NCBI GenBank assembly: GCA_044230415.1 | Contig: JBGARE010000037.1 | Location: forward strand, 64,001-105,825 | Direction of reading: 5' to 3' | DNA from: Kofleriaceae bacterium | GTDB taxonomy: Bacteria; Myxococcota_A; Polyangia; Haliangiales; Haliangiaceae | DNA length: 41,825 nucleotides | Part shown: in pieces, positions 1 to 12,575 of the stretch | Layout of the letters: every line of letters begins with the position of its first letter | Numbering within the stretch: position 1 is the stretch's first letter | Translations under genes and position numbers: made by a program | Notes under the pieces: generated by a model | The model's input: only the letters and a program-made list of their open reading frames with translations | What the model was told of the DNA's origin: nothing | Databases searched by the model: none

Positions 1-1426
1 GCAGCATCGACTTCAGCTCGGGCTGATCGACCGGATAGAACAGCGGGATGTGGACCTCGGCGCGGCCCTGGCGCTTGAGATCGACCGGCAGGTTATCCGG
101 GCGCGCGGTCAGCAGCATCCAGATGATCTTGCCGCGATAGGCGGTGTCGCCCATCTGCGAGGCGATGAGCGCGAACACGCGACCACCGACGCCGCTGTCA
201 CCACCCGAGTCGCGATCACCGAGCATCGCGTCTGCTTCGTCGATGATCACGACGACCGGACCCATCGAGCGCAGCACGTTGAGCACGCGCTCGAGGTTGC
301 CTTCCGTCTCGCCGACGTACTTGCTGCGGAAGTTCTTCAGCACGACGGCCGGGATGCCGATCGATCCGGCGACGCACGTCGCGAGGAAGCTCTTGCCCGT
401 TCCGACCGGACCGCAGAACAGATAGCCCATCGGCACGGTGTCGAGCTCGCCGCGCTTGATCAGCTCGGCATCGTCGAGCAACCGCTTCTTCGCGGCTTCG
501 TGACCGACGACGGTATCGAGGCCCCACTTCGGCTCGACGAACTCGAGCAGGCCCTGCGCCTGGCGCTCGATCAAGCGCTTCTTCAGATCCTTGAAGTACA
601 CGCGGTCGAGGCGGCGATTTCCCTCGAGCGTCGACTGCACGAGGACCTCGAGGTCCGTGAGGCCGATGCCGGCGGTCAGCTTGCCGAGCTCCGCGACGCT
701 GTAGTCCGAGAACGTCGCGAGGTCCTTGCCGCTCGCTTTGATCTGCGCGTCGAGATACGCGGTGCGCTCGTCGGCGGCGGGGAGCGGCACTTCGATCGAC
801 GCGACGTGCGGATTTCCAGCGAGGCGATCGTTGATGCTCGACAGCCGCGGATCGATCAGCACGAACGCCATGTTCAGGCGCTTCACGTACGGGCTCGACG
901 ACCAGTTGAGCAGCGTCACGAGGTGCGTCTGCTCGTTGAGATCGAGGTTGTCGCCGCTCGGCGCGACGTATCCGGCGTGGTCGATGATGATCGCGCAGCG
1001 GAGACGCTTCTCCGGATCGGCCATCACGTTCTTCTGCACGAACAGATCGATCGCGAGCAGTCCCTTCGTCGGATCGCGGGGCAGGGCGCGTAGATCGCCG
1101 AGCCACTTGTTCGCGGTCTCGACCATCTCTTGAAGCCGCTTGCTGTTCGAGCCGGCGCTGCAGCGAAGGCCGCCCGCGAGGTCGTACTTGATCACGAGGT
1201 CCCAGCGGCCGAACAGCTGCTCGGAGAGAAACTCGGTCAGGCCCGTCCACCGATCCGGTGCGGAGCGGACGACATCGAACGTGTTGCCATGCACGATGAA
1301 CATCGAGGTCGTGCCGGAGAAGTACAGCTCGGCGAGCTTGCCGGCCCACGCAGGAAAGTGCGGCGGCAGCGCGGTCGCCTTCGTCACGCCATCGGAACCC
1401 GCCAACGTCTTCTTGTCGTCGCTCAT
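1..1426 (-). CDS. Classic-clade AAA+ ATPase, partial (C-terminus lies beyond the window start). It has a ~290-aa N-terminal domain of unknown type, then Walker A GPVGTGKS, an SKYVGETEGNLERV motif, Walker B VVVIIDEAD and sensor-1-like LLTARPDNLP.
   Basis: I reverse-translated bases 1..1426 by hand. The reading frame is continuous from ATG (1426..1424), which overlaps the upstream gene's stop as ATGA. AAA motif order and spacing resemble the Vps4/FtsH/p97 clade, not the bEBP clade (no GAFTGA). The gene is absent from the ORF track because it runs off the window edge. Confidence 0.85.
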   Translation of the reverse strand, partial: MSDDKKTLAGSDGVTKATALPPHFPAWAGKLAELYFSGTTSMFIVHGNTFDVVRSAPDRWTGLTEFLSEQLFGRWDLVIKYDLAGGLRCSAGSNSKRLQEMVETANKWLGDLRALPRDPTKGLLAIDLFVQKNVMADPEKRLRCAIIIDHAGYVAPSGDNLDLNEQTHLVTLLNWSSSPYVKRLNMAFVLIDPRLSSINDRLAGNPHVASIEVPLPAADERTAYLDAQIKASGKDLATFSDYSVAELGKLTAGIGLTDLEVLVQSTLEGNRRLDRVYFKDLKKRLIERQAQGLLEFVEPKWGLDTVVGHEAAKKRLLDDAELIKRGELDTVPMGYLFCGPVGTGKSFLATCVAGSIGIPAVVLKNFRSKYVGETEGNLERVLNVLRSMGPVVVIIDEADAMLGDRDSGGDSGVGGRVFALIASQMGDTAYRGKIIWMLLTARPDNLPVDLKRQGRAEVHIPLFYPVDQPELKSML

Positions 1427-2373
1427 TTGCGCTGGCCTTCCACGGCGCGCGGTGCGGTCAGATCGGCGTCGAGGATCGACGGCGTGGTGTCCGCGTCGCT
1501 GACGCCCGTGATCTGTTGCAGCTCGCGAATCGTTGCTTCCGTCTGCGAGATGCCTTCGCTGATCGCGTCGATGCGATGCGACATCTCGTCGGGATCCGTG
1601 TGTCCGACGGCCATCTCGGTGACCGCCTGGATCTTGTTCTCGAGGCGATCGAGCTCGGTCGCGATGAACTCGGCGTTCTGCCGCGCCTTCTCGACGTTCT
1701 CCTTGCGCGCTTCGGCCGTGGAGATGCTGTCGTCGAGAGAGCGAATGATGCGGTCGTCTGCTTGGTTCGCTTCGCCGACAGAGTCCGCGCGCTTCTTGCG
1801 GCGCACCTTGAGGTCGGCGACGGTCTTGTCGATCGCGCCTTCATCGGCCGCTTGCAGAAAGCGCGAGATCGCCTGCTCGCTGAGGAGCAAGCGCAAGAAC
1901 ACCCAGAGCAGACGGTCGAGCGCCGGCGTGCGCAGCTCGGTCGAGGCACCGCTCGCATCGCGCGTGTCACCACGGACGGCGTTCGCGATCCGCGACATCT
2001 CCACGCAGCGCGCGCGCAGGCGCAAGAAGCGCGAGCGGCGATCCTCGGTTAGCGACTTGAGGACATCGAGGATCTTGTCGCGGGCGTTGCCTTCGCCGTC
2101 GACGGCGTTGCGGGTGCCGCTGATCCGTCGCGCGCCGGGGCCTTCGCCAGCCTCGGAGCGCGCCTTCGCGTCGATCGCGGCTTGGAACCGTGGCAGCGTC
2201 GTGAGCCCCGCGAGGTACACGACCTCACCGGCCGCGACGAGCGGCAGCGCGATGTCCGCGTGTCCGGACACCACCGCGGCGGCGGCGGCACCGCCGAACA
2301 CGAGGAGGTTCCAGCGGAACATGAACGCTTCCTTCAGATAGCGAAGCAGTCCGGCTTTCTTCTTCTCTGCCAC
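1423..2373 (-). CDS. Hypothetical membrane protein: two N-terminal TM helices (LLVFGGAAAAAVVSG / LPLVAAGEVVYLAGLTTL) followed by a ~230-aa predicted helical/coiled-coil domain.
   Basis: ORF track 316 aa. Its stop overlaps the AAA+ start (ATGA). Its start (apparently GTG) lies 1-2 nt from the ABC ATPase stop. It has a hydrophobic N-terminus and a charged heptad-like C-terminal region; no recognisable family. Confidence 0.65.
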   Translation of the reverse strand: MAEKKKAGLLRYLKEAFMFRWNLLVFGGAAAAAVVSGHADIALPLVAAGEVVYLAGLTTLPRFQAAIDAKARSEAGEGPGARRISGTRNAVDGEGNARDKILDVLKSLTEDRRSRFLRLRARCVEMSRIANAVRGDTRDASGASTELRTPALDRLLWVFLRLLLSEQAISRFLQAADEGAIDKTVADLKVRRKKRADSVGEANQADDRIIRSLDDSISTAEARKENVEKARQNAEFIATELDRLENKIQAVTEMAVGHTDPDEMSHRIDAISEGISQTEATIRELQQITGVSDADTTPSILDADLTAPRAVEGQRK

Positions 2374-2374
2374 G

Positions 2375-3645
<1,271 letters not shown>

Positions 3646-3649
<4 letters not shown>

Positions 3650-4854
3650 AGATCCTTCCGCCACCGGAACGCCTCGCGCTGGAGGCCGCGAAGGAGGAAG
3701 TCGAGCGTGAACGCGACGAACGTGATCACGAACAGCAGCAGATAGATCTGCTCGTAGAGGCCAAGGCGCTGGCTCGTGTTGAGCATCGTGCCGAGCCCGT
3801 GCGGCGTGTTCACGATCTCGACGAGCATGATGTAGCCGAGCGCCAGCCCGAGGAGGAAGCGCAAGCTCGTGATGATGTCCGGCAACGCGAGCGGGATGAG
3901 CACCTTGCGCACGATCTGCCATCGCGACGCGCCCAAAGTCTGCGCTGTCTCGACGTATCTCTCGGGCACGATCGAGACCGCCTTGACCGTGTCGCTGAAC
4001 ACGAACGGAACGACCGCGAGGAAAATGAACATCCACTTCTGCTTCTCGCCGTCACCGAACAACAGCAGCGTGAGCGGGATCAGCGCGCCCATCGGGACCG
4101 AGCGCAAGAAGATGACGAGCGGCTCGAGCGCACTGCCGACACCGCGATTCGACCCCGCCAACACACCGACGGAGATGCCGATCAGCGCGGCGAGGCCGAT
4201 GCCCTTGAACACGCGGATCAGCGTGTCGATCAGCGAGTCGGTGAAGTCGCGATCGAGCAACTTGCCGAGCGCCCCGAACACCTCGCCCGGGCTCGGCAAC
4301 TTCGACGGCGACACGATGCGCGCGGTCGGGTCTTTGCCGTAGGTCAGGACGAACCACAACAGGAGCACGAACGCGATCAGTCCCGCGCCGAGCGCCGCGC
4401 GCACGAGCGGCGGCGGATCCGCGCGCAGCGTCTTCCACCACGGAGGTGCGGTGGGGAGCTTGTTCGGATCGTCGTCCTCGTCGATCGCCTCGGCTTTCGG
4501 CTCGGGCTTCTTCGGCTCGGGCTTCTTCGCCTCGGCTTTCGGCTCGGGCTTCGCGTCGACCTTCGGCGCGGGCTTCGCGTCGACCTTCGCCTCGGGCTTC
4601 GCCTCGGGCTTGGCCTCGGGGGACTTCGCCTCGGCTTTCGGCGTCGCCGGCGGAAGCTCGTCGGGAACCGATGCGGGCGCGGGCTTCGGCGGCGGTTCGC
4701 CCGAGAGCTCGGCTTCGAGCGCGGCGAGCGCTGCTGCTTCGGCCGCAGGATCACGCGGCGGCTTCGCGGGCGCAGCTTCCGCCTTCGGCGCATCCGCCTT
4801 CGGGGGCGCGTCCGTGGGAGCCTTCGGCGGCGGTGGATCCTTCGGTTCGGTCAC
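3646..4854 (-). CDS. ABC transporter permease (BPD_transp_1 / NitT-TauT type) with a ~150-aa low-complexity Pro/Ala/Lys/Glu-rich N-terminal cytoplasmic extension (PEAKPEAK repeats).
   Basis: ORF track 402 aa. Six predicted TM helices in the C-terminal 250 aa. The end resembles the conserved permease loop (TSQRLGLYEQIYLLLFVITFVAFTLDFLLRGLQ). The N-terminus has tandem KPEA/KVDA repeats. Confidence 0.85.
4490..4640. repeat. Tandem short-period nucleotide repeats (ggcttcg / cgggcttcg units) encoding the PEAKPEAK / KVDAKP low-complexity linker of the permease.
   Basis: Directly visible as reiterated 'ctcgggcttcttcg / cgggcttcgcgtcgaccttcg' blocks on the plus strand. Confidence 0.7.
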
Positions 4855-4860
4855 GTCTCG

Positions 4861-6609
4861 CTACTGGGCCTCTGCCGGAACGACCTTGACCTCGACGCGA
4901 CGGTTCTTGGCGTGGTTATCGGGATCCTTCGGATCGGCGGGCTTCGCCCAGCCATAGCCCGTCGCCGTGAACTGGTTCGGCGCCATCTTGAACTTGTTCA
5001 CGAGCGCTTCCTTCACCGCGTTCGCTCGGCGAGTCGACAGCTCCTTGACCAAGCTCTCGTCGGCGTTGCCCTTCATCGAGCCGTCGGTGTGACCCTCGAT
5101 CACGATGCGCGCGGCACCGAACTGACCCGCGAGCTTCGCGATCTCTTCGATCGTGTACTCGACGTTTCCGTCGTAGAACACTTCGCCCGAGCCGGCCTTC
5201 GCCGGGACCTTCTTGTAGACCTCGTAGCTGTTCGGGAAGAAGTTGATCGTCACCGTCTTCGTGAGCACGGCGCTCTCGACGTTGACCTCGTTGCTGCCCG
5301 CGGGCGTGAACTTGAACTCGTACTCGTTCTTGCTCTCCGCGTATTTCGGCTCGCTGCCGAGCTTCTTGATCACGGAGAAGTCCATGATCTTGTCGAACTC
5401 GGTCTTGTCGTTGACCGCGCGGATCGCCTTGTAGAGGACGAACGCCGTGTTGTACGTGCGCTCGAAGTTCGTCGGGTTCGACGCGACCATGAAGAAGTCG
5501 CGGTTCTCCGCGTAGTTCGTCCAGTGCGCGTCGGCGAGCATGCCCGAGCCCGTGCCGGGCGGCAGGCCGTAGAAGTTGTCCATCATCTTCGCGACTTCTT
5601 GCTTCTTCTGATCGTCCTTCGACAGCTCGTCGGTCGCGTCGAGGATGCCGCGCACGAGACCCTCGATGATCTCCGGGTTGTCACGTGCGAAGTCCGCGCG
5701 CGCGAACCACACATCGGCGATCAGCTTGTTCGCGGTCGCCGTCGACACGAGCATCTTGTTGCCCATGCCCGTCTTCGTCAGGTTGTAGATGTCCGGCGCC
5801 CACGAGACCACGCCGGCGATGTCCTTGTTCTGGTTGAACGCGGCGGCCGCTTGGAACGCGTCCTGCGTGAACTTCATCTTCACTTCGCTCGGCTGCACGC
5901 CGCCGTTGAGCAGCACGTTCAAGAGGAAGTAGTGCGACGGCGAGTTCTGCGCGAGCACCACGGTCTTGCCGCGGAGATCCGAGACGTCCTTGATCGAGTC
6001 GCGAACGACGATGCCGTCGCCGCCGTTCGACCAGTCGATCTGCTGATACACGCGCGGCATCGTGCGCGGATCGCGCTTGAGGCGCTCGATGATGAGCGGC
6101 AGCATGTCGACCGTCGCCCAGCCGATGTGCACCGAGCCGTTCGCGAACGAGTCGCCCATCGCGACCGGGTTGTCGATCAGCTTCAGCTTGACCTGGAACT
6201 CGCCGCCTTTGGCGTCCTTCCAGACCTTCTTCGGTTCCGCGCCACCGTTCGCCCAGATGATCGGCGCCCAGCCTGCCCACACGTTCACCGCGAACTGCAC
6301 GACGCGCGGCTTGCCGAGCTTCTCGTAGTCCGAGGTTCCGGGGACGGTCGGCAGCGTCGTCGACGGCTCGAACTTGTACTCGGTGACCGTGGTCGCCGGT
6401 GCGTTGGGATCCGGGTTCTCGGCGGTCGTGGCCGAGCCGTTCTTCTTCACGAGGTTCGGATCGATGTAGTCGCCGCTGCCGCTACCGGACTTTCCGTCGC
6501 CGGACTTCTTCGCGTTGCAGCGATAGAACGCGATGCCGCAGAGTCCGATGACGACTGCGATCACCGCGATGAAGAATGCAGGCTTTGGTTTTCCAGCTCC
6601 GTCCGCCAT
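4861..6609 (-). CDS. Membrane-anchored periplasmic substrate-binding protein (NMT1/SsuA/TauA-like, NitT/TauT family) fused to a C-terminal OmpA-like peptidoglycan-binding domain.
   Basis: ORF track 582 aa. N-terminal signal-anchor AFFIAVIAVVIGLCGIAF. The central ~330 aa are SBP-like (VVLAQNSPSHYFLLNVLL..., GVVSWAPDIY). The C-terminus reads RIVIEGHTDGS...TRRANAVKEALV...ATGYGWAKP...NRRVEVKVV, a canonical OmpA_C motif set. GC content is somewhat lower than in neighbouring genes. Confidence 0.85.
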   Translation of the reverse strand: MADGAGKPKPAFFIAVIAVVIGLCGIAFYRCNAKKSGDGKSGSGSGDYIDPNLVKKNGSATTAENPDPNAPATTVTEYKFEPSTTLPTVPGTSDYEKLGKPRVVQFAVNVWAGWAPIIWANGGAEPKKVWKDAKGGEFQVKLKLIDNPVAMGDSFANGSVHIGWATVDMLPLIIERLKRDPRTMPRVYQQIDWSNGGDGIVVRDSIKDVSDLRGKTVVLAQNSPSHYFLLNVLLNGGVQPSEVKMKFTQDAFQAAAAFNQNKDIAGVVSWAPDIYNLTKTGMGNKMLVSTATANKLIADVWFARADFARDNPEIIEGLVRGILDATDELSKDDQKKQEVAKMMDNFYGLPPGTGSGMLADAHWTNYAENRDFFMVASNPTNFERTYNTAFVLYKAIRAVNDKTEFDKIMDFSVIKKLGSEPKYAESKNEYEFKFTPAGSNEVNVESAVLTKTVTINFFPNSYEVYKKVPAKAGSGEVFYDGNVEYTIEEIAKLAGQFGAARIVIEGHTDGSMKGNADESLVKELSTRRANAVKEALVNKFKMAPNQFTATGYGWAKPADPKDPDNHAKNRRVEVKVVPAEAQ

Positions 6610-6612
6610 CGA

Positions 6613-7383
6613 TTACTCCGTCACCTTGGTGGGTTCTGCCTTCTGCGGAGCTTCCTCTGCAGGGCCGAGATCCTTCGCGGCCTGGACGACGGGGCTCGTC
6701 TCGGGCGCGCGCATGCCGAGCTCGACCTCGAGATCCTTGAGCGCGTCGTCGGCCATCGAAGCCTCCATCCGCTCCTCGGCTTTGATCTTGTCGATGCCTT
6801 CGTTCGACAGATCGCTCGCGACGCGGGCCTTGCCGCGGTTCGTGTCGATCTTGCGCTGGATGACATCCTCGAGCTGACCGAAGTCCGTCGTGACGTCCAT
6901 GTTGAAGCTCTGCGTGAGCTTCGCGACCTCGGCTTCCGCCTCGGACATCTTCAGCTCGGCGTCGTACTTCGAGATCTTGTCTTTGACCTCGACGAGCTTC
7001 TTGTTCGCGTACTGGATCTTCTTGAGGTTGTTCGTGTACGCGGCCTCGTGCATCGCGAGCTGCTGCTTGTTCTCTTCGAGCTGCGTCTTCGCCTTCGTCA
7101 GCTGCAGCGCGAACGAACCCGCGGTCTCGCGATCGCCGGACTTCAAGTACGCCTTGGCCTGCGCGGTCAGCTTGTTGACCTGGTTTTCGCCGTCCTTGAC
7201 CTGTCGAGACACACGCTCGACGAGGCCACGGTATTGCTCGAGGCCAACACGCCCCTCTTTCAGCTGTTCGACCGCTTGGTCGTACTCGTACTGCATCTGG
7301 GCGATCGGATCGGCCTCCCAGAAGAAGTTGGCGAGCTTGTTGAGCTGAGCCCTGATCGCACCAAAGAACTTTCCGAGAATCAT
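6613..7383 (-). CDS. pspA: PspA/IM30 (Vipp1) family protein, a bacterial ESCRT-III superfamily member.
   Basis: The start was chosen at MILGKFFGAIRAQLNKLANFFWEADPIAQMQYEYDQAVEQLKEGR (a typical PspA N-terminal amphipathic helix), 23 codons inside the track ORF. A GGAGG RBS sits ~8 nt upstream. It is long helical/coiled-coil throughout and ends 3 nt before the SBP gene start. Confidence 0.85.
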   Translation of the reverse strand: MILGKFFGAIRAQLNKLANFFWEADPIAQMQYEYDQAVEQLKEGRVGLEQYRGLVERVSRQVKDGENQVNKLTAQAKAYLKSGDRETAGSFALQLTKAKTQLEENKQQLAMHEAAYTNNLKKIQYANKKLVEVKDKISKYDAELKMSEAEAEVAKLTQSFNMDVTTDFGQLEDVIQRKIDTNRGKARVASDLSNEGIDKIKAEERMEASMADDALKDLEVELGMRAPETSPVVQAAKDLGPAEEAPQKAEPTKVTE

Positions 7384-7501
7384 CGCGAAGCCTCCGGCCC
7401 GCGCGCACGTGGGACGCGGGGGACCACAAGATAGGAGGGACCCAGACCCCACTCAAGCCACCTGGTCAAAAACTGCCCGGTGGCCGCGTACTTGATGAAA
7501 C

Positions 7502-7852
7502 TTAGCGAAACGGACCATCCGCGACGGGATCGGGGTTCACCCACGTGAAGCCCTGCAGATCGTTCCACGGCACGCTCTTCGGCTCGCGCACGTAGGTCTC
7601 GTGATAGCCGCACTCCGTACACACGTACGCTTCGAGCTGACCGACGAGCGGCAACGCCTTGCCGACGCCATCGACGCGGGTCGCCGTGCGCTGGATGCCG
7701 AGCGATCGCGACACCGCCTGGCGTGCCGCGTTGATGAACTGATGATCCTCGCGATCGTCGCGCGCCACGAGGACGTCGTTCGCGTCGACTTGGAACGCGA
7801 TGTGTCCGATGCGAAGGCTCTGGCACTTGGGACATTGCTTGGACCTCTTCAT
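7502..7852 (-). CDS. Small zinc-ribbon protein (CPKC...CTEC).
   Basis: ORF track 116 aa. It has two CxxC pairs ~70 aa apart and a divergent promoter region toward 7979. Confidence 0.55.
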   Translation of the reverse strand: MKRSKQCPKCQSLRIGHIAFQVDANDVLVARDDREDHQFINAARQAVSRSLGIQRTATRVDGVGKALPLVGQLEAYVCTECGYHETYVREPKSVPWNDLQGFTWVNPDPVADGPFR

Positions 7853-7978
7853 CGCGCGCGAGCGTAGCGCGCTACGACGTCACAGATGCATCACTCGTAA
7901 GCACGCGCCGACGGCGATCAACACCAACGTTTCACCCAAGGCGCCGCGCGTCTCTGTGTCGTGCGCTAGTCTACGAGC

Positions 7979-8749
7979 GTGCGTGAGGTCAGTCGCGGGC
8001 TCGGTGACGTCGGCAAGGCGCTCGATTTCCTGAAGGCGCGACCGCGGCTGTGGAAGTGGCTCGTGATGCCCGCGATCATCACGCTGCTCGTCCTCGCCGG
8101 TATCGTGCTCGGTGTCGTCGCGCTCGTCGATCCGCTCGTCGTGTGGGTCGCGGCGCACGTGCCGAGCTGGCTCGAGACGATCGTCAGCTGGATCCTGCGC
8201 ATCGTCGTGATCCTCGGCGTCGGCATGGCCGCGATGGTCGTGTTCGTCGGCGTCGCCGGCATGATCGCGGGCCCGTTCAACGAGATGCTGTCCGAAGCGG
8301 TCGAGGAGGAGATCACGGGGAAGCCCGGACCTCCATTCGCGCTCGGCGCGTTCGTTCGCGATGCGCTCGTCGGGATCGGGCACGCGCTGCGCCGGTTGGC
8401 GCTGAGCCTCGTGTGGCTCGTGCTGTTGTTCGTGCTCGGCTTCGTCCCGGTCGTGGGCACGATCGCCGCGTTCGTCCTCGGGCTGTACCTCGCGGCGGCG
8501 GGCTGCGCGTACGACTGCTACGACGCGGTGATGGCGCGGCGCGGGATGTCCTACGCGCAGAAGCAGGCGTTCCTCGCCGCGCATCGGCAGCGATCGATGG
8601 GACTCGGCGGTGCGGTCGCGGGGATGCTGCTCGTGCCGTTCGTGAACCTCGTCGCGCTCGGACTCGGCGCCACGGCGGCGACGCTCGCGCTCGTCCCGTC
8701 AGCGAATGGGCAGCATGACGACGCCGCCGGTCGACGCGGCGATCGGTAG
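7979..8749 (+). CDS. EI24/CysZ-like (DUF540) polytopic inner-membrane protein.
   Basis: ORF track 256 aa with 4-5 hydrophobic helices, and N-terminal LDFLKARPRLWKWLVMP and GPFNEMLSEAVEEEI motifs typical of the family. It was preferred over the antisense Arg/His-rich ORF 7880..8584. Confidence 0.6.
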   Translation: MREVSRGLGDVGKALDFLKARPRLWKWLVMPAIITLLVLAGIVLGVVALVDPLVVWVAAHVPSWLETIVSWILRIVVILGVGMAAMVVFVGVAGMIAGPFNEMLSEAVEEEITGKPGPPFALGAFVRDALVGIGHALRRLALSLVWLVLLFVLGFVPVVGTIAAFVLGLYLAAAGCAYDCYDAVMARRGMSYAQKQAFLAAHRQRSMGLGGAVAGMLLVPFVNLVALGLGATAATLALVPSANGQHDDAAGRRGDR

Positions 8750-9709
8750 CTCCGTCGTCGCGATCCACGTGTCGTTCGCGAGATCGAAGCGATAGCGACC
8801 GATGACGGGTGTCGACCGGTGCCCGGCGACGAACATCTCCTGCGAGCTCTCGGAGAACGTCAGCGCCGAGGGATTCGCGATCGTGTCGATCGGCGCGAGC
8901 TCGGACAGCGTGTTGTTCGCGTTGATCTGGAAGCGATACACCTTCGACGCATCGATGGCGGCGACGTAGAGCTGGCCCTGGCGCTGCGCCATGAAGTGAA
9001 GACCGGGCGCGCCGGTGGCCGTGGTCACGGGCAGCTCCGTTCCGGTCGCGACCTCGAACCGGCGGATCACGTTGCTCGCCGTCGACATGAACAGCGTGCT
9101 GCCGTTCGGCGAGATCGAGACGCCGCGACACGGACCATCGCCGAGCATGCCGTTCGGCGAGGCGGTGTTGCCGGCGAACGTGAACCGCGAGATGCCGGTC
9201 GACACGTTGCACGCGAACAGCTCGCCCGTCATCGGGTGGAGCACCATGTCGTGAACACCCGACGTGATGTTCGCGCCGGTGATGCGCCCGCTCGGCGTGA
9301 ATGCGCGCCCCGTCGGCGAGTACGCGAAGCGCGCGATCGAGCCGGCGACTCCATCAGCGGAGTTATTGCCGTGGCGCTCGCCGATGAAGATCTCCTGCGA
9401 CGACGCGCGATAGATCACCGCGACCGGATCGGCGACGAGCGTCCGCGAGATGCCCGTGATCGGTGTCGCGGCTCCGTTGTCGCTCCCGATCTCGAACGCG
9501 ACGAGCCCACCCCACGTCGCTGGATCGTTGTTCGCGGGACCCGGAGGGCTGACGGTGACGAGGAGAACGCCGCCGCTCACCGGCGCATCGAGCGGCGGGC
9601 CGTCGATGTCGGTGCCGTCGAACGGGGGCGCATCGGCGAGTGGCCGATTGCCGCCGTCGTCGCCGCAACCACCGACGGTGATCACGACGAGAGCGAGCAG
9701 CGCACGCAC
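8699..9709 (-). CDS. Secreted lipoprotein with a beta-propeller (lactonase/YbhE-like) fold.
   Basis: ORF track 336 aa. Lipobox LVVITVGGC. The repeated blade-like segments include GELFACNVSTG and GQLYVAAIDASKVYRF. It is the last gene of the HK-RR-OMP operon. Confidence 0.65.
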   Translation of the reverse strand: MRALLALVVITVGGCGDDGGNRPLADAPPFDGTDIDGPPLDAPVSGGVLLVTVSPPGPANNDPATWGGLVAFEIGSDNGAATPITGISRTLVADPVAVIYRASSQEIFIGERHGNNSADGVAGSIARFAYSPTGRAFTPSGRITGANITSGVHDMVLHPMTGELFACNVSTGISRFTFAGNTASPNGMLGDGPCRGVSISPNGSTLFMSTASNVIRRFEVATGTELPVTTATGAPGLHFMAQRQGQLYVAAIDASKVYRFQINANNTLSELAPIDTIANPSALTFSESSQEMFVAGHRSTPVIGRYRFDLANDTWIATTELPIAASTGGVVMLPIR

Positions 9710-9721
9710 GCGGTCAGCGTA

Positions 9722-11096
9722 TCAGAACAGGAACTGACCTTCGACGCCGACGACGAGGCCGAAGTTGTCCTGCGACAGGTAGCGATGGCCGACGAGATCG
9801 ATGCGCTGGCTGTGGAGCGGGTTGACCTCGTCGGTGCCCGGGTTGACCACGTCGTTGTCGCTCTCCTCGCAGCCGGCGTTGCTGCCGGTGCACGTGGGGC
9901 GATCGATGCCCGCGTCCGCGAACGTGATGACGTGGTCGGTCTTCCACGAGACATCGACGGTGGCAGCGAACCGCACGTGCTTGCCGAGAGCCGCGCGGAT
10001 CGCGAAGCGACCGGCGGTCTCGAGATAGTTCTCGACGTTCGAGATGCCGGGGTGGTTCAGCTGCTGGACGCCCGGGTCGGTCGGATCCTCGTCGAGGACG
10101 AGCTGCGGCGTGATCGCGGTGTTGCCGCTATCGCCGGCGAACGCGAACACTTCCCACATCTCGGTGTACTGGCGACCTTCGAAGTGCCCCGCGATGCGAG
10201 CCCCCGCGTCGAGGCTGATCCGGTTGCCCGTGAGCTTGTCGTCGACGGCGAACACTTCGACGCCGAACGCGACGCCGCCTTCCTGTGGAGGACGTGCGTT
10301 CGTGACGCCGAACCCGAGGTCCTCGTTGTAGAGCGAGGCGGTCTTCGCGGTGAGCGGCACCTGGTAGTACAGACCGAACCAGCCCTCGGTGTGCTCGAAC
10401 TGGCGATCGACGGTGGTCCACAGGCGGAGCTCGTGGACGCCGCGGCCGACCGACGTGTTTCGCGTCGGGTTGTTCGCGGAGAAGCTCATGATGCCGCCGA
10501 TGGCGAGCCGGAGCTCGGCGCCCATCTTCCACGTCGGCTTCGTGTCGTCGCGGCGCTGGTTCATCGGCGCGACGTTGAGGCCGAGGTTGACCTGGTCGAG
10601 GCCGGAGCGCGCGACGCCGCGGAACACCATCGAGCCGGGTGGGGCGGCGGTGGGGTCGCGCGCGTCGAAGCCGGCCATCGGCAAGAAGCCATCACGCAGC
10701 GTGCTCGACTGATCGCGGCCGACACCGCCGGCGAGCTCGAGCTCGCGTGACTGCGTGATGATGATCGGCAGGCTCGCCGACAGCCACGTGTCGCGGACCA
10801 CGCCGAGCTCGATGCGCGGCGTGAGCACGTGGCGGAACTGGTGGAACTTGAGGTCCTGCTTGCGCGGGATGCCACCGTCGGGGTCGACGTCGGTGCCGCC
10901 GATCTGCTCGCGCGTCACCGCGGAGGAGTCGAGCTGGTACTCGTAGTCGAGGTACGCCTGCGCGGGTTGGTCACCCGCGGACGTCACCGCCGATGCGGGA
11001 TTCGCATCGGCGATCGTGGTGGCTCCCCCGACCCACAGGACCGTGCAGAAGACGAACGACGTGCGGCGCAGCACCGAGCGCACGTTATCACGCAAC

Positions 11097-11104
<8 letters not shown>
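9722..11104 (-). CDS. Outer-membrane beta-barrel protein (signal peptide; C-terminal ...GVEGQFLF with a terminal Phe).
   Basis: ORF track 460 aa. It has alternating amphipathic beta-strand pattern and a C-terminal aromatic OMP signature. Its start overlaps the upstream response-regulator stop by 8 nt. Confidence 0.65.

Positions 11105-12575
<1,471 letters not shown>

Follow-up and report, generated by a model that had tools for sequence, protein, structure and literature searches.

A cluster of six minus-strand genes lies at the left end of a 41,825-nucleotide stretch of DNA from a Kofleriaceae bacterium (Myxococcota; contig JBGARE010000037.1), referred to here as the window. The cluster encodes PspA, a protein of the ESCRT-III superfamily, together with a classic-clade AAA+ ATPase, the substrate-binding protein (SBP), permease and ATPase of an ATP-binding cassette (ABC) importer, and a helical membrane protein with two transmembrane (TM) segments. 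Comparison of gene neighbourhoods shows that the locus is, by gene content and order, the Kofleriaceae copy of a predicted two-module operon that is found in several phyla and that also includes a 97-aa protein (d97). We consider it rather likely that the ATPase disassembles or turns over PspA polymers in a Vps4-like manner, with d97 and the transporter in the roles proposed below.

The way in which bacterial ESCRT-III-type polymers, such as those of PspA and Vipp1, are taken apart is still an unsettled question in the field. According to a 2025 review, a Vps4-like ATPase ‘appears absent in bacteria’ (PMC7619361), and the possible disassembly factors considered in a 2024 structural paper are limited to PspF and chaperones (PMC11746142). 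If our reading is correct, ATP-driven ESCRT-III turnover exists in bacteria and has arisen independently of Vps4. The operon type occurs widely among phyla of soil and water, and a PspA with a dedicated classic-clade unfoldase would provide a direct test case. Since others have already published the idea as a prediction from genomes, the locus is of value as a well-defined experimental target rather than as a discovery. The analysis sharpens that target: the ATPase is of the Cdc48 kind rather than the Vps4 kind, PspA–AAA–d97 forms the constant core, and the transporter and the 2-TM protein form a separable module.

The gene set is conserved across phyla in two orders

One genome per species was scanned with a 15-sequence alignment of the ATPase, which gave 80 related loci (48–93% identity), and the neighbouring genes in these loci were identified by tblastn and HMM searches with the window proteins. 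The loci came from the Myxococcota, Acidobacteriota, Gemmatimonadota and Planctomycetota and from one Acidimicrobiales bin; a cultured carrier, Paraliomyxa miuraensis SMH-27-4 (Myxococcota; L024), is among them. The closest proteins to those of the cluster were from Kofleriaceae metagenome bins.

All six genes were present in 45 of the 80 loci, from at least four phyla, so that the neighbourhood of pspA and a classic AAA+ gene, whose conservation had been put forward as a check in the initial annotation and whose loss in relatives would have counted against the proposal, proved to be kept well beyond the Kofleriaceae. Two arrangements were found. The order of the window, PspA–SBP–Perm–ABC–TM–AAA(–d97), where Perm is the permease and TM the 2-TM protein, was seen in 34 of the 45 loci. 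The order PspA–AAA–d97–SBP–Perm–ABC–TM was seen in 11, mainly from the Planctomycetota. Most of the remaining loci were cut by contig ends, yet they fit one of the two orders. The same gene set has thus been kept through rearrangement across phyla, which is strong evidence of joint function.

Eight loci contained PspA–AAA–d97 alone; two of the eight, L077 and L083, have flanks longer than 9 kb on both sides in which no ABC gene was present. PspA is therefore the constant partner of the ATPase, and the linkage is functional rather than inherited synteny. In terms of gene content, these data show a core (PspA, the ATPase and d97) and a separable accessory module (the transporter and the 2-TM protein). 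The 2-TM gene keeps company with the transporter genes in both orders, which groups the 2-TM protein with the transporter rather than with the ATPase. The SBP gene likewise adjoins the permease gene in relatives.

In three loci (L035, L071 and L076) the ATPase was 50–60% identical and no PspA was detected within the available flanks; in L035, which is from the Rhodanobacteraceae, none of the partner genes was detected.

The d97 gene lies beyond the left edge of the window. On the ENA contig that carries the full locus (L001), the d97 gene starts 22 nt after the ATPase gene, and a gene for a 179-aa protein comes next. The d97 protein is all-helical, with the consensus W.D....P.i......L..F..a.aDG.....El..Qe..lv..Mk..E..L.d..H.kvT.lL.ELtAY..M. 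It was present in 62 of the 80 loci, nearly always directly after the ATPase, and this held for both gene orders and for the minimal loci. Pfam and PDB profile searches with d97 returned nothing significant. By eye, its ADGxIDxxEL motif has what we take to be a likeness to EF-hand or TerB loops.

The start of the gene for the 179-aa protein overlaps the d97 stop by 1 nt. The protein has an HLFGH motif and a weak match to DUF3805 (E=5e-4, under the cut-off). Its gene follows d97 only in Myxococcota loci; in L049, L050 and L063 it lies upstream on the opposite strand.

The PspA protein is divergent and, within the operon type, highly conserved

By its domain match, the 256-aa protein is a PspA/IM30 family member, as had been claimed for it in the initial annotation. 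Residues 1–217 align with positions 1–213 of the 220-position PF04012 profile (E=4e-11), which amounts to a full-length match, and the score of 43.4 bits exceeds the gathering cut-off of 33.9. The N-terminal amphipathic helix α0, MILGKFFGAIRAQLNKLANFFWEADP, was read directly from the sequence and is kept across phyla; after it comes the ADP junction that characterizes PspA and Vipp1. Alignment by hhalign with Escherichia coli PspA and Synechocystis Vipp1 was full-length, over 227 columns (P=3e-4). The hhalign references used here and below (PspA/Vipp1 and Snf7/CHMP) were small sets of sequences entered by hand, which is a caveat on these comparisons. A PDB-sequence profile search with the protein did not recover PspA or Vipp1, and this PspA is therefore divergent.

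In an alignment of 55 loci, PspA identity across phyla was 58–91%, with a single exception at 45% (L056). The 2-TM protein, at 29–87%, is the less conserved neighbour, and PspA and the AAA+ ATPase are the most conserved components of the operon. Conservation of PspA is far above expectation for a coiled-coil protein and suggests that many of its interaction surfaces are constrained. The C-terminal tail is also conserved (..L..fE..lGl..PeT......K.LGPa), with L215, E219, G223, P227, K237, L239, G240 and P241 invariant.

The locus resembles the classical Psp and Lia systems (PspF–PspABC and LiaIH) in that a PspA/IM30 effector is encoded with membrane-protein partners. In contrast to those systems, no PspB, PspC, LiaI or LiaF domains were found by Pfam, the ATPase is not a bacterial enhancer-binding protein (bEBP), and no sigma-54 promoter was found upstream.

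The ATPase is a Cdc48-like tandem enzyme with a degenerate first domain

Retrieval of the full protein, as proposed in the initial annotation, gave a sequence of 595 aa (P0001) that is 100% identical over the 475 residues held in the window. The SKYVGETE, VVIIDEAD and sensor-1 motifs quoted earlier are all present, and the assignment to the classic clade and not to the bEBPs also stands. The protein matched PF00004 with E=1e-23 and had no Sigma54_activat family match. Its best PDB sequence matches were AFG2, VAT and Cdc48/p97 (E ∼4e-32 to 1e-26, in the C-terminal half), and Vps4 was not among the top 60. NCBIfam matches were to CDC48 (4e-17), PAN (4e-12), FtsH (2e-10) and CdvC (5e-10). A search of 1.84 billion cluster representatives gave many full-length relatives at 28–60% identity.

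An AF2 model of the ATPase, built with 58 relatives, had a pLDDT of 93.5 and a pTM of 0.90. Foldseek aligned the whole chain to the D1–D2 tandems of Cdc48/p97, Rix7/NVL and AFG2 (550–630 columns, TM 0.5–0.56, E ∼1e-19). The N-terminal ∼290 residues are therefore assigned as an AAA+-like D1, which in the model comprises an α/β domain plus lid at residues ∼25–290. A Walker A motif was found in D1 in none of 58 family members; an FxLHGN motif stands at the place of the P-loop. From these motifs, D1 is predicted to be degenerate and dead. The D2 domain has Walker A (GPVGTGKS), Walker B (VVIIDEAD), a KYVG pore loop, sensor 1 (T440) and arginine fingers (R452 and R455). Among the 58 members, Walker A was kept in 53, and the pore-loop aromatic, G372, R452 and R455 were each kept in all 58. 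By this census D2 is intact, with the classic-clade unfoldase motifs complete, and is predicted to be active and built for translocation.

It had been suggested that this N-terminal region might be an MIT-like or substrate-recognition domain, with a known unrelated module, such as a protease-associated domain, as the outcome that would count against the proposal. Neither was found: there was no Pfam MIT match, and the AF2 model and Foldseek show the degenerate AAA+ D1. Given this D1–D2 arrangement, the sequence and the model both identify the ATPase as a type II tandem enzyme of the Cdc48/Rix7/AFG2 kind and not as a Vps4 orthologue. The parallel with Vps4 drawn in the initial annotation therefore holds as far as the classic clade but not as orthology. 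The ATPase shares with Cdc48/p97/VAT, AFG2/Drg1 and Rix7/NVL the D2 pore loop and arginine fingers, in addition to giving its best sequence and fold matches there. It differs from them in having no N-terminal double-psi-barrel or cofactor-binding domain, in the loss of the D1 Walker A in 58 of 58 members, and in a gene context dedicated to PspA.

No ESCRT-III similarity was detected in the 2-TM protein

The 316-aa protein has hydrophobic N-terminal helices at residues ∼21–37 and ∼41–59 and, from hydropathy and the AF2 model (pLDDT 66, eight helices), an all-helical cytoplasmic domain. It ends in a conserved C-terminal motif, tGl......P.iL. The matching protein of the same operon type has been labelled ‘SIG+TM+Snf7’ by Popp et al. 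(PMC11237479), and the initial annotation had asked whether the protein has an ESCRT-III/Snf7 fold.

No similarity of this kind was detected. Pfam searches with the protein and 55 homologues gave no Snf7 or PspA_IM30 among the 25 families listed, which were those most matched by the 56 members at E≤1. PDB profile searches, whether from a shallow or a deep alignment, gave no ESCRT-III or PspA chain at E≤10. By hhalign, comparison with the operon's own PspA gave P ∼0.5–0.58 and comparison with the PspA/Vipp1 and Snf7/CHMP sets gave P of at least 0.24, whereas the positive controls gave 3e-4 (operon PspA against PspA/Vipp1) and 3e-5 (PspA/Vipp1 against Snf7). Fold searches with the low-confidence model had no significant match, with CdvB2 among the weak ones. 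Snf7/ESCRT-III identity is thus without support from Pfam, PDB profiles or hhalign. The published label was not reproduced here; because the profiles behind it may have been more sensitive than those used here, it is not refuted either.

Two weaker signals were also considered. Matches of the 2-TM protein to Vps4 MIT domains (E ∼0.7–1) were lost with a deeper profile and are therefore ascribed to chance. An EL..xGL motif common to the PspA and 2-TM tails was the top hhalign pairing three times, at a non-significant P=0.4–0.6.

The transporter is NitT/TauT-like by its domain families

The SBP has an N-terminal TM anchor, a binding domain like those of NMT1, TauA and SsuA, and a C-terminal OmpA-like peptidoglycan-binding domain (Pfam OmpA 1e-13, NMT1 2e-7, NMT1_2 7e-6). 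The OmpA-like domain matches the MotB, Pal and TssL models, and it is in this domain that the SBP resembles the MotB/Pal-type proteins. Given the TM segment at one end and the OmpA-like domain at the other, the SBP is tethered to the inner membrane and probably also to peptidoglycan. The description of the transporter as ‘envelope-spanning’ in the initial annotation was therefore too strong: the SBP has its anchor in the inner membrane, and an outer-membrane component is lacking.

The permease matched BPD_transp_1 (2e-24) and has a Pro/Ala/Lys-rich N-terminal extension of ∼150 aa. The ABC ATPase matched ABC_tran (2e-29) in two stretches. It has an 80-aa N-terminal extension and an ∼80-aa insertion at residues ∼192–272 (2834..3076, minus strand), which falls between the Q-loop region and the signature motif and splits the match. 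Homologues of the ABC ATPase in other phyla are mostly 270–310 aa, without the extension or insertion.

Against NCBIfam, the SBP matched urea, taurine and sulfonate binding-protein models at 1e-13 to 5e-18, the permease SaoP, TauC and NtrB at 1e-25 to 9e-33, and the ABC ATPase TauB at 1e-58. All of these matches were far under the equivalog cut-offs (198 vs 357 bits for TauB and 60 vs 490 bits for TauA), and no substrate can therefore be named. By domain families, the transporter would be a NitT/TauT-type importer. Its SBP, permease and ATPase families are those of TauABC, SsuABC and NrtABCD, from which it differs in the fusion of the SBP to a TM anchor and a peptidoglycan-binding domain and in the insertion in the ABC ATPase.

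We noted an identical 14-aa motif, RDPAAEAAALAALE, at residues 34–47 of the permease (4714..4755) and residues 29–42 of the ABC ATPase (3524..3565), both encoded on the minus strand. The motif sits in the disordered N-terminal extensions of the two proteins, and its two copies, taken with their flanks, agree at 56 of 72 nt. Related motifs were found only in close Kofleriaceae relatives, and the extensions are missing in other phyla. The repeat could be a shared docking peptide or the result of a recent duplication.

The six genes are tightly packed

The initial annotation described six tightly packed minus-strand genes, and all six genes and their short junctions were seen (Table 1). From pspA to the AAA+ gene, the junctions are +3, +6, −4, +1 and −4 nt. 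Both −4 junctions, between the permease and ABC ATPase genes and between the 2-TM gene stop and the AAA+ start, are ATGA overlaps. From this spacing and its conservation, we infer that the six genes are co-transcribed, and the operon probably runs on past the left edge of the window into the d97 gene.

A promoter and terminator scan found no promoter-like sites inside the cluster, and terminator-like sites in the cluster were no commoner than in shuffled sequence. No Rfam element (riboswitch or sRNA) matched in or upstream of the cluster. Upstream of pspA, the scanner found no sigma-70 consensus site; a weak TTGAGT-17-TATCTT (7456..7428), under the scanner threshold, was noticed by eye and matches at 8 of 12 positions. 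A sigma-54 −24/−12 element is absent from 7384..8000, and control by PspF and sigma-54 was rejected on this ground. The long plus-strand open reading frames in the region are the usual antisense artefacts of DNA with 65% G+C. An anti-phage defence system was also rejected, since PADLOC returned nothing beyond partial IetA matches, which fell on the generic AAA module.

Relation to published predictions and to ESCRT-III/Vps4

The same architecture was predicted by comparative genomics by Popp, Ravi, Aravind, Gennaro, Mascher et al. (mSystems 2024; PMC11237479). Their example OGG56892.1, from Ca. Handelsmanbacteria (Table S3), is given as PspA, SIG+PBPB+OmpA, TM permease, ABC-ATPase, SIG+TM+Snf7 and inactive-AAA+classical-AAA. 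They proposed ATP-dependent membrane remodelling comparable to that by Snf7/VPS4 and a link to solute transport, and they also described Firmicutes variants consisting only of GntR–AAA–PspA (PMC11237479). The six-gene content and order are identical to those found here, and the N-terminal AAA+ copy is inactive in both. The present locus is from a Kofleriaceae lineage, and the differences are that the Snf7 label was not reproduced and that the published table is without the 97-aa gene after the ATPase, the Planctomycetota order and the two-module structure. What is new here is thus the two-module structure and the conserved 97-aa partner, and not the architecture itself. The initial annotation had called the module uncharacterized. 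This is no longer so for the architecture and the Vps4 analogy, which have been published, but it remains so for experiment: no experimental study of the operon type was found in the literature searched.

The likeness to archaeal CdvB/CdvC and eukaryotic Snf7-CHMP/Vps4 lies in a gene for a polymer-former of the ESCRT-III superfamily beside one for a classic-clade AAA+ protein with translocating pore loops, and in a conserved C-terminal tail on the polymer subunit. However, Vps4 and CdvC have an MIT domain and a single AAA module, whereas the ATPase here has no MIT domain and is a tandem with a dead D1. The polymer-former belongs to the PspA rather than the Snf7 branch, and an ESCRT-II or CdvA-like partner is missing. 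In archaea, too, ESCRT loci have taken in a binding protein (ProX) from an osmoregulatory ABC system (PMC10936438), a parallel to the transporter here that we find suggestive.

Proposed mechanism and alternatives

In the mechanism that we favour, PspA would polymerize at sites of stress or damage, on the cytoplasmic side of the inner membrane. The AAA+ hexamer would then grip PspA subunits, probably by their conserved unstructured C-terminal tail, and thread them through the D2 pore with its KYVG loop, leading to disassembly or turnover of the polymer. This would be the job that Vps4 does on ESCRT-III, carried out by a Cdc48-type enzyme without an MIT domain. Since its gene travels with the ATPase gene, d97 is the best candidate for an adaptor or regulator of the ATPase. 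The transporter and the 2-TM protein may determine where this activity takes place or tie it to the state of the envelope or of solutes. A fuller version is possible rather than probable, and we offer it tentatively: the locus may encode a bacterial functional counterpart of ESCRT-III/Vps4, in which an MIT-less Cdc48-type unfoldase acts on PspA tails with d97 as adaptor and is coupled to a peptidoglycan-tethered importer that reports or corrects the envelope or osmotic state.

Several observations weigh against turnover of PspA by the ATPase. The ATPase is without a recognizable substrate-recognition domain. It is nearer to Cdc48, AFG2 and VAT than to Vps4 and CdvC, so that the Vps4 parallel is one of analogy and not of orthology. 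The role of the transporter is left unexplained by a model of PspA disassembly. The d97 gene is absent from the Gemmatimonadota, where in the one locus inspected (L033) a permease gene directly follows the ATPase gene; d97 is therefore not essential everywhere. In addition, PspA rods are themselves able to bind and hydrolyse ATP (PMC11746142), and a dedicated ATPase is therefore no general requirement.

The ATPase could instead be a membrane-protein extractase or quality-control unfoldase, like Cdc48, Msp1 or the ATPase module of FtsH, with the 2-TM protein or the transporter subunits as clients and PspA only sealing or stabilizing the membrane. This would fit with Cdc48/p97, AFG2 and Rix7 as the closest relatives by sequence and structure, with the overlap of the ATPase start and the 2-TM stop in the window, and with the conserved C-terminal tail of the 2-TM protein. 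In this lineage, the long disordered N-terminal tails of the permease and the ABC ATPase, with their common 14-aa motif, could be the handles. However, that motif is limited to Kofleriaceae relatives, the minimal loci L077 and L083 keep PspA–AAA–d97 without 2-TM or ABC genes within 9 kb, the Planctomycetota ATPase adjoins PspA and not the 2-TM gene, and the Firmicutes variants have only GntR, AAA and PspA (PMC11237479). We therefore regard extraction of membrane proteins as unlikely, and turnover of PspA as the better account of the ATPase.

A locus concerned mainly with solute uptake (for example of an osmoprotectant, sulfonate, nitrate or a bicarbonate-like solute), with PspA, the ATPase and the 2-TM protein as regulators or gatekeepers of transport, would explain the complete NitT/TauT-type set of SBP, permease and ATPase. 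It would also accord with the recruitment of osmoregulatory ProX to archaeal ESCRT loci (PMC10936438) and with the link between remodelling and solute transport proposed by Popp et al. (PMC11237479). Yet the minimal loci do without the transporter module, all three of its proteins fall far under every NCBIfam equivalog cut-off, and it is PspA and the ATPase that are most conserved, which makes this improbable. Descent from a true ESCRT system, with the ATPase as a Vps4 orthologue and the 316-aa protein as a membrane-anchored Snf7, and hence two ESCRT-III paralogues with Vps4, could draw on the published ‘SIG+TM+Snf7’ label (PMC11237479), the classic-clade ATPase with its CdvC match (5e-10) and CdvB2 among the weak fold matches of the 2-TM protein. 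On the evidence of domains and similarity, we judge this very improbable. That the genes are chance neighbours or inherited synteny with no joint function has in its favour only the general caveat that adjacency is not function; start–stop overlaps and the same gene set in two orders in at least four phyla effectively refute it.

Features of the locus and neighbouring genes

The features of the locus are listed in Table 1 together with the genes that flank it. On the strand of pspA, 118 nt upstream of that gene, is a gene for a 116-aa zinc-ribbon-like protein that has two CxxC pairs. It was considered as a part of the system and rejected; as no homologue was found in any of the 80 related loci, we place it outside. 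Further upstream, the gene for an EI24-family membrane protein runs opposite to the operon. Farther out are two co-directional genes (336 and 460 aa) with function unassigned and an NtrC-type response regulator/sigma-54 activator, which is set apart from the operon by the oppositely oriented gene.

Table 1. Features of the PspA–AAA+ locus and flanking genes. Positions are those of the window unless preceded by L001, which denotes the ENA contig with the full locus.
Feature	Position	Strand	Length	Remarks
pspA (PspA/IM30 family, ESCRT-III superfamily)	6613..7383	minus	256 aa	Pfam PF04012
SBP with OmpA-like domain	4861..6609	minus	582 aa	Pfam OmpA, NMT1
ABC importer permease, TauC/SsuC/NtrB-like	3646..4854	minus	402 aa	Pfam BPD_transp_1
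ABC ATPase, TauB/NtrCD-like	2375..3649	minus	424 aa	Pfam ABC_tran
2-TM helical membrane protein	1423..2373	minus	316 aa	Without Pfam family
Classic-clade AAA+ ATPase	1..1426	minus	N-terminal 475 of 595 aa	PF00004; gene exceeds left window edge
Presumed promoter region upstream of pspA	7384..7501	minus	118 nt	Intergenic
d97, all-helical protein	L001:11811-12104	plus	97 aa	Starts 22 nt after ATPase gene; outside window
179-aa protein	L001:12104-12643	plus	179 aa	HLFGH motif
Zinc-ribbon-like protein	7502..7852	minus	116 aa	Upstream of pspA
EI24-family membrane protein	7979..8749	plus		Opposite to operon
Two genes and NtrC-type regulator	∼8699..12575	minus		336 and 460 aa for the two genes
715-aa PEGA/histidine-kinase-like protein and hybrid histidine kinase	L001:12691-16702	plus		Past operon

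At the other end of the locus, past the operon, lies a gene for a hybrid histidine kinase, together with a 715-aa protein that has a histidine-kinase-like ATPase region and PEGA domains.

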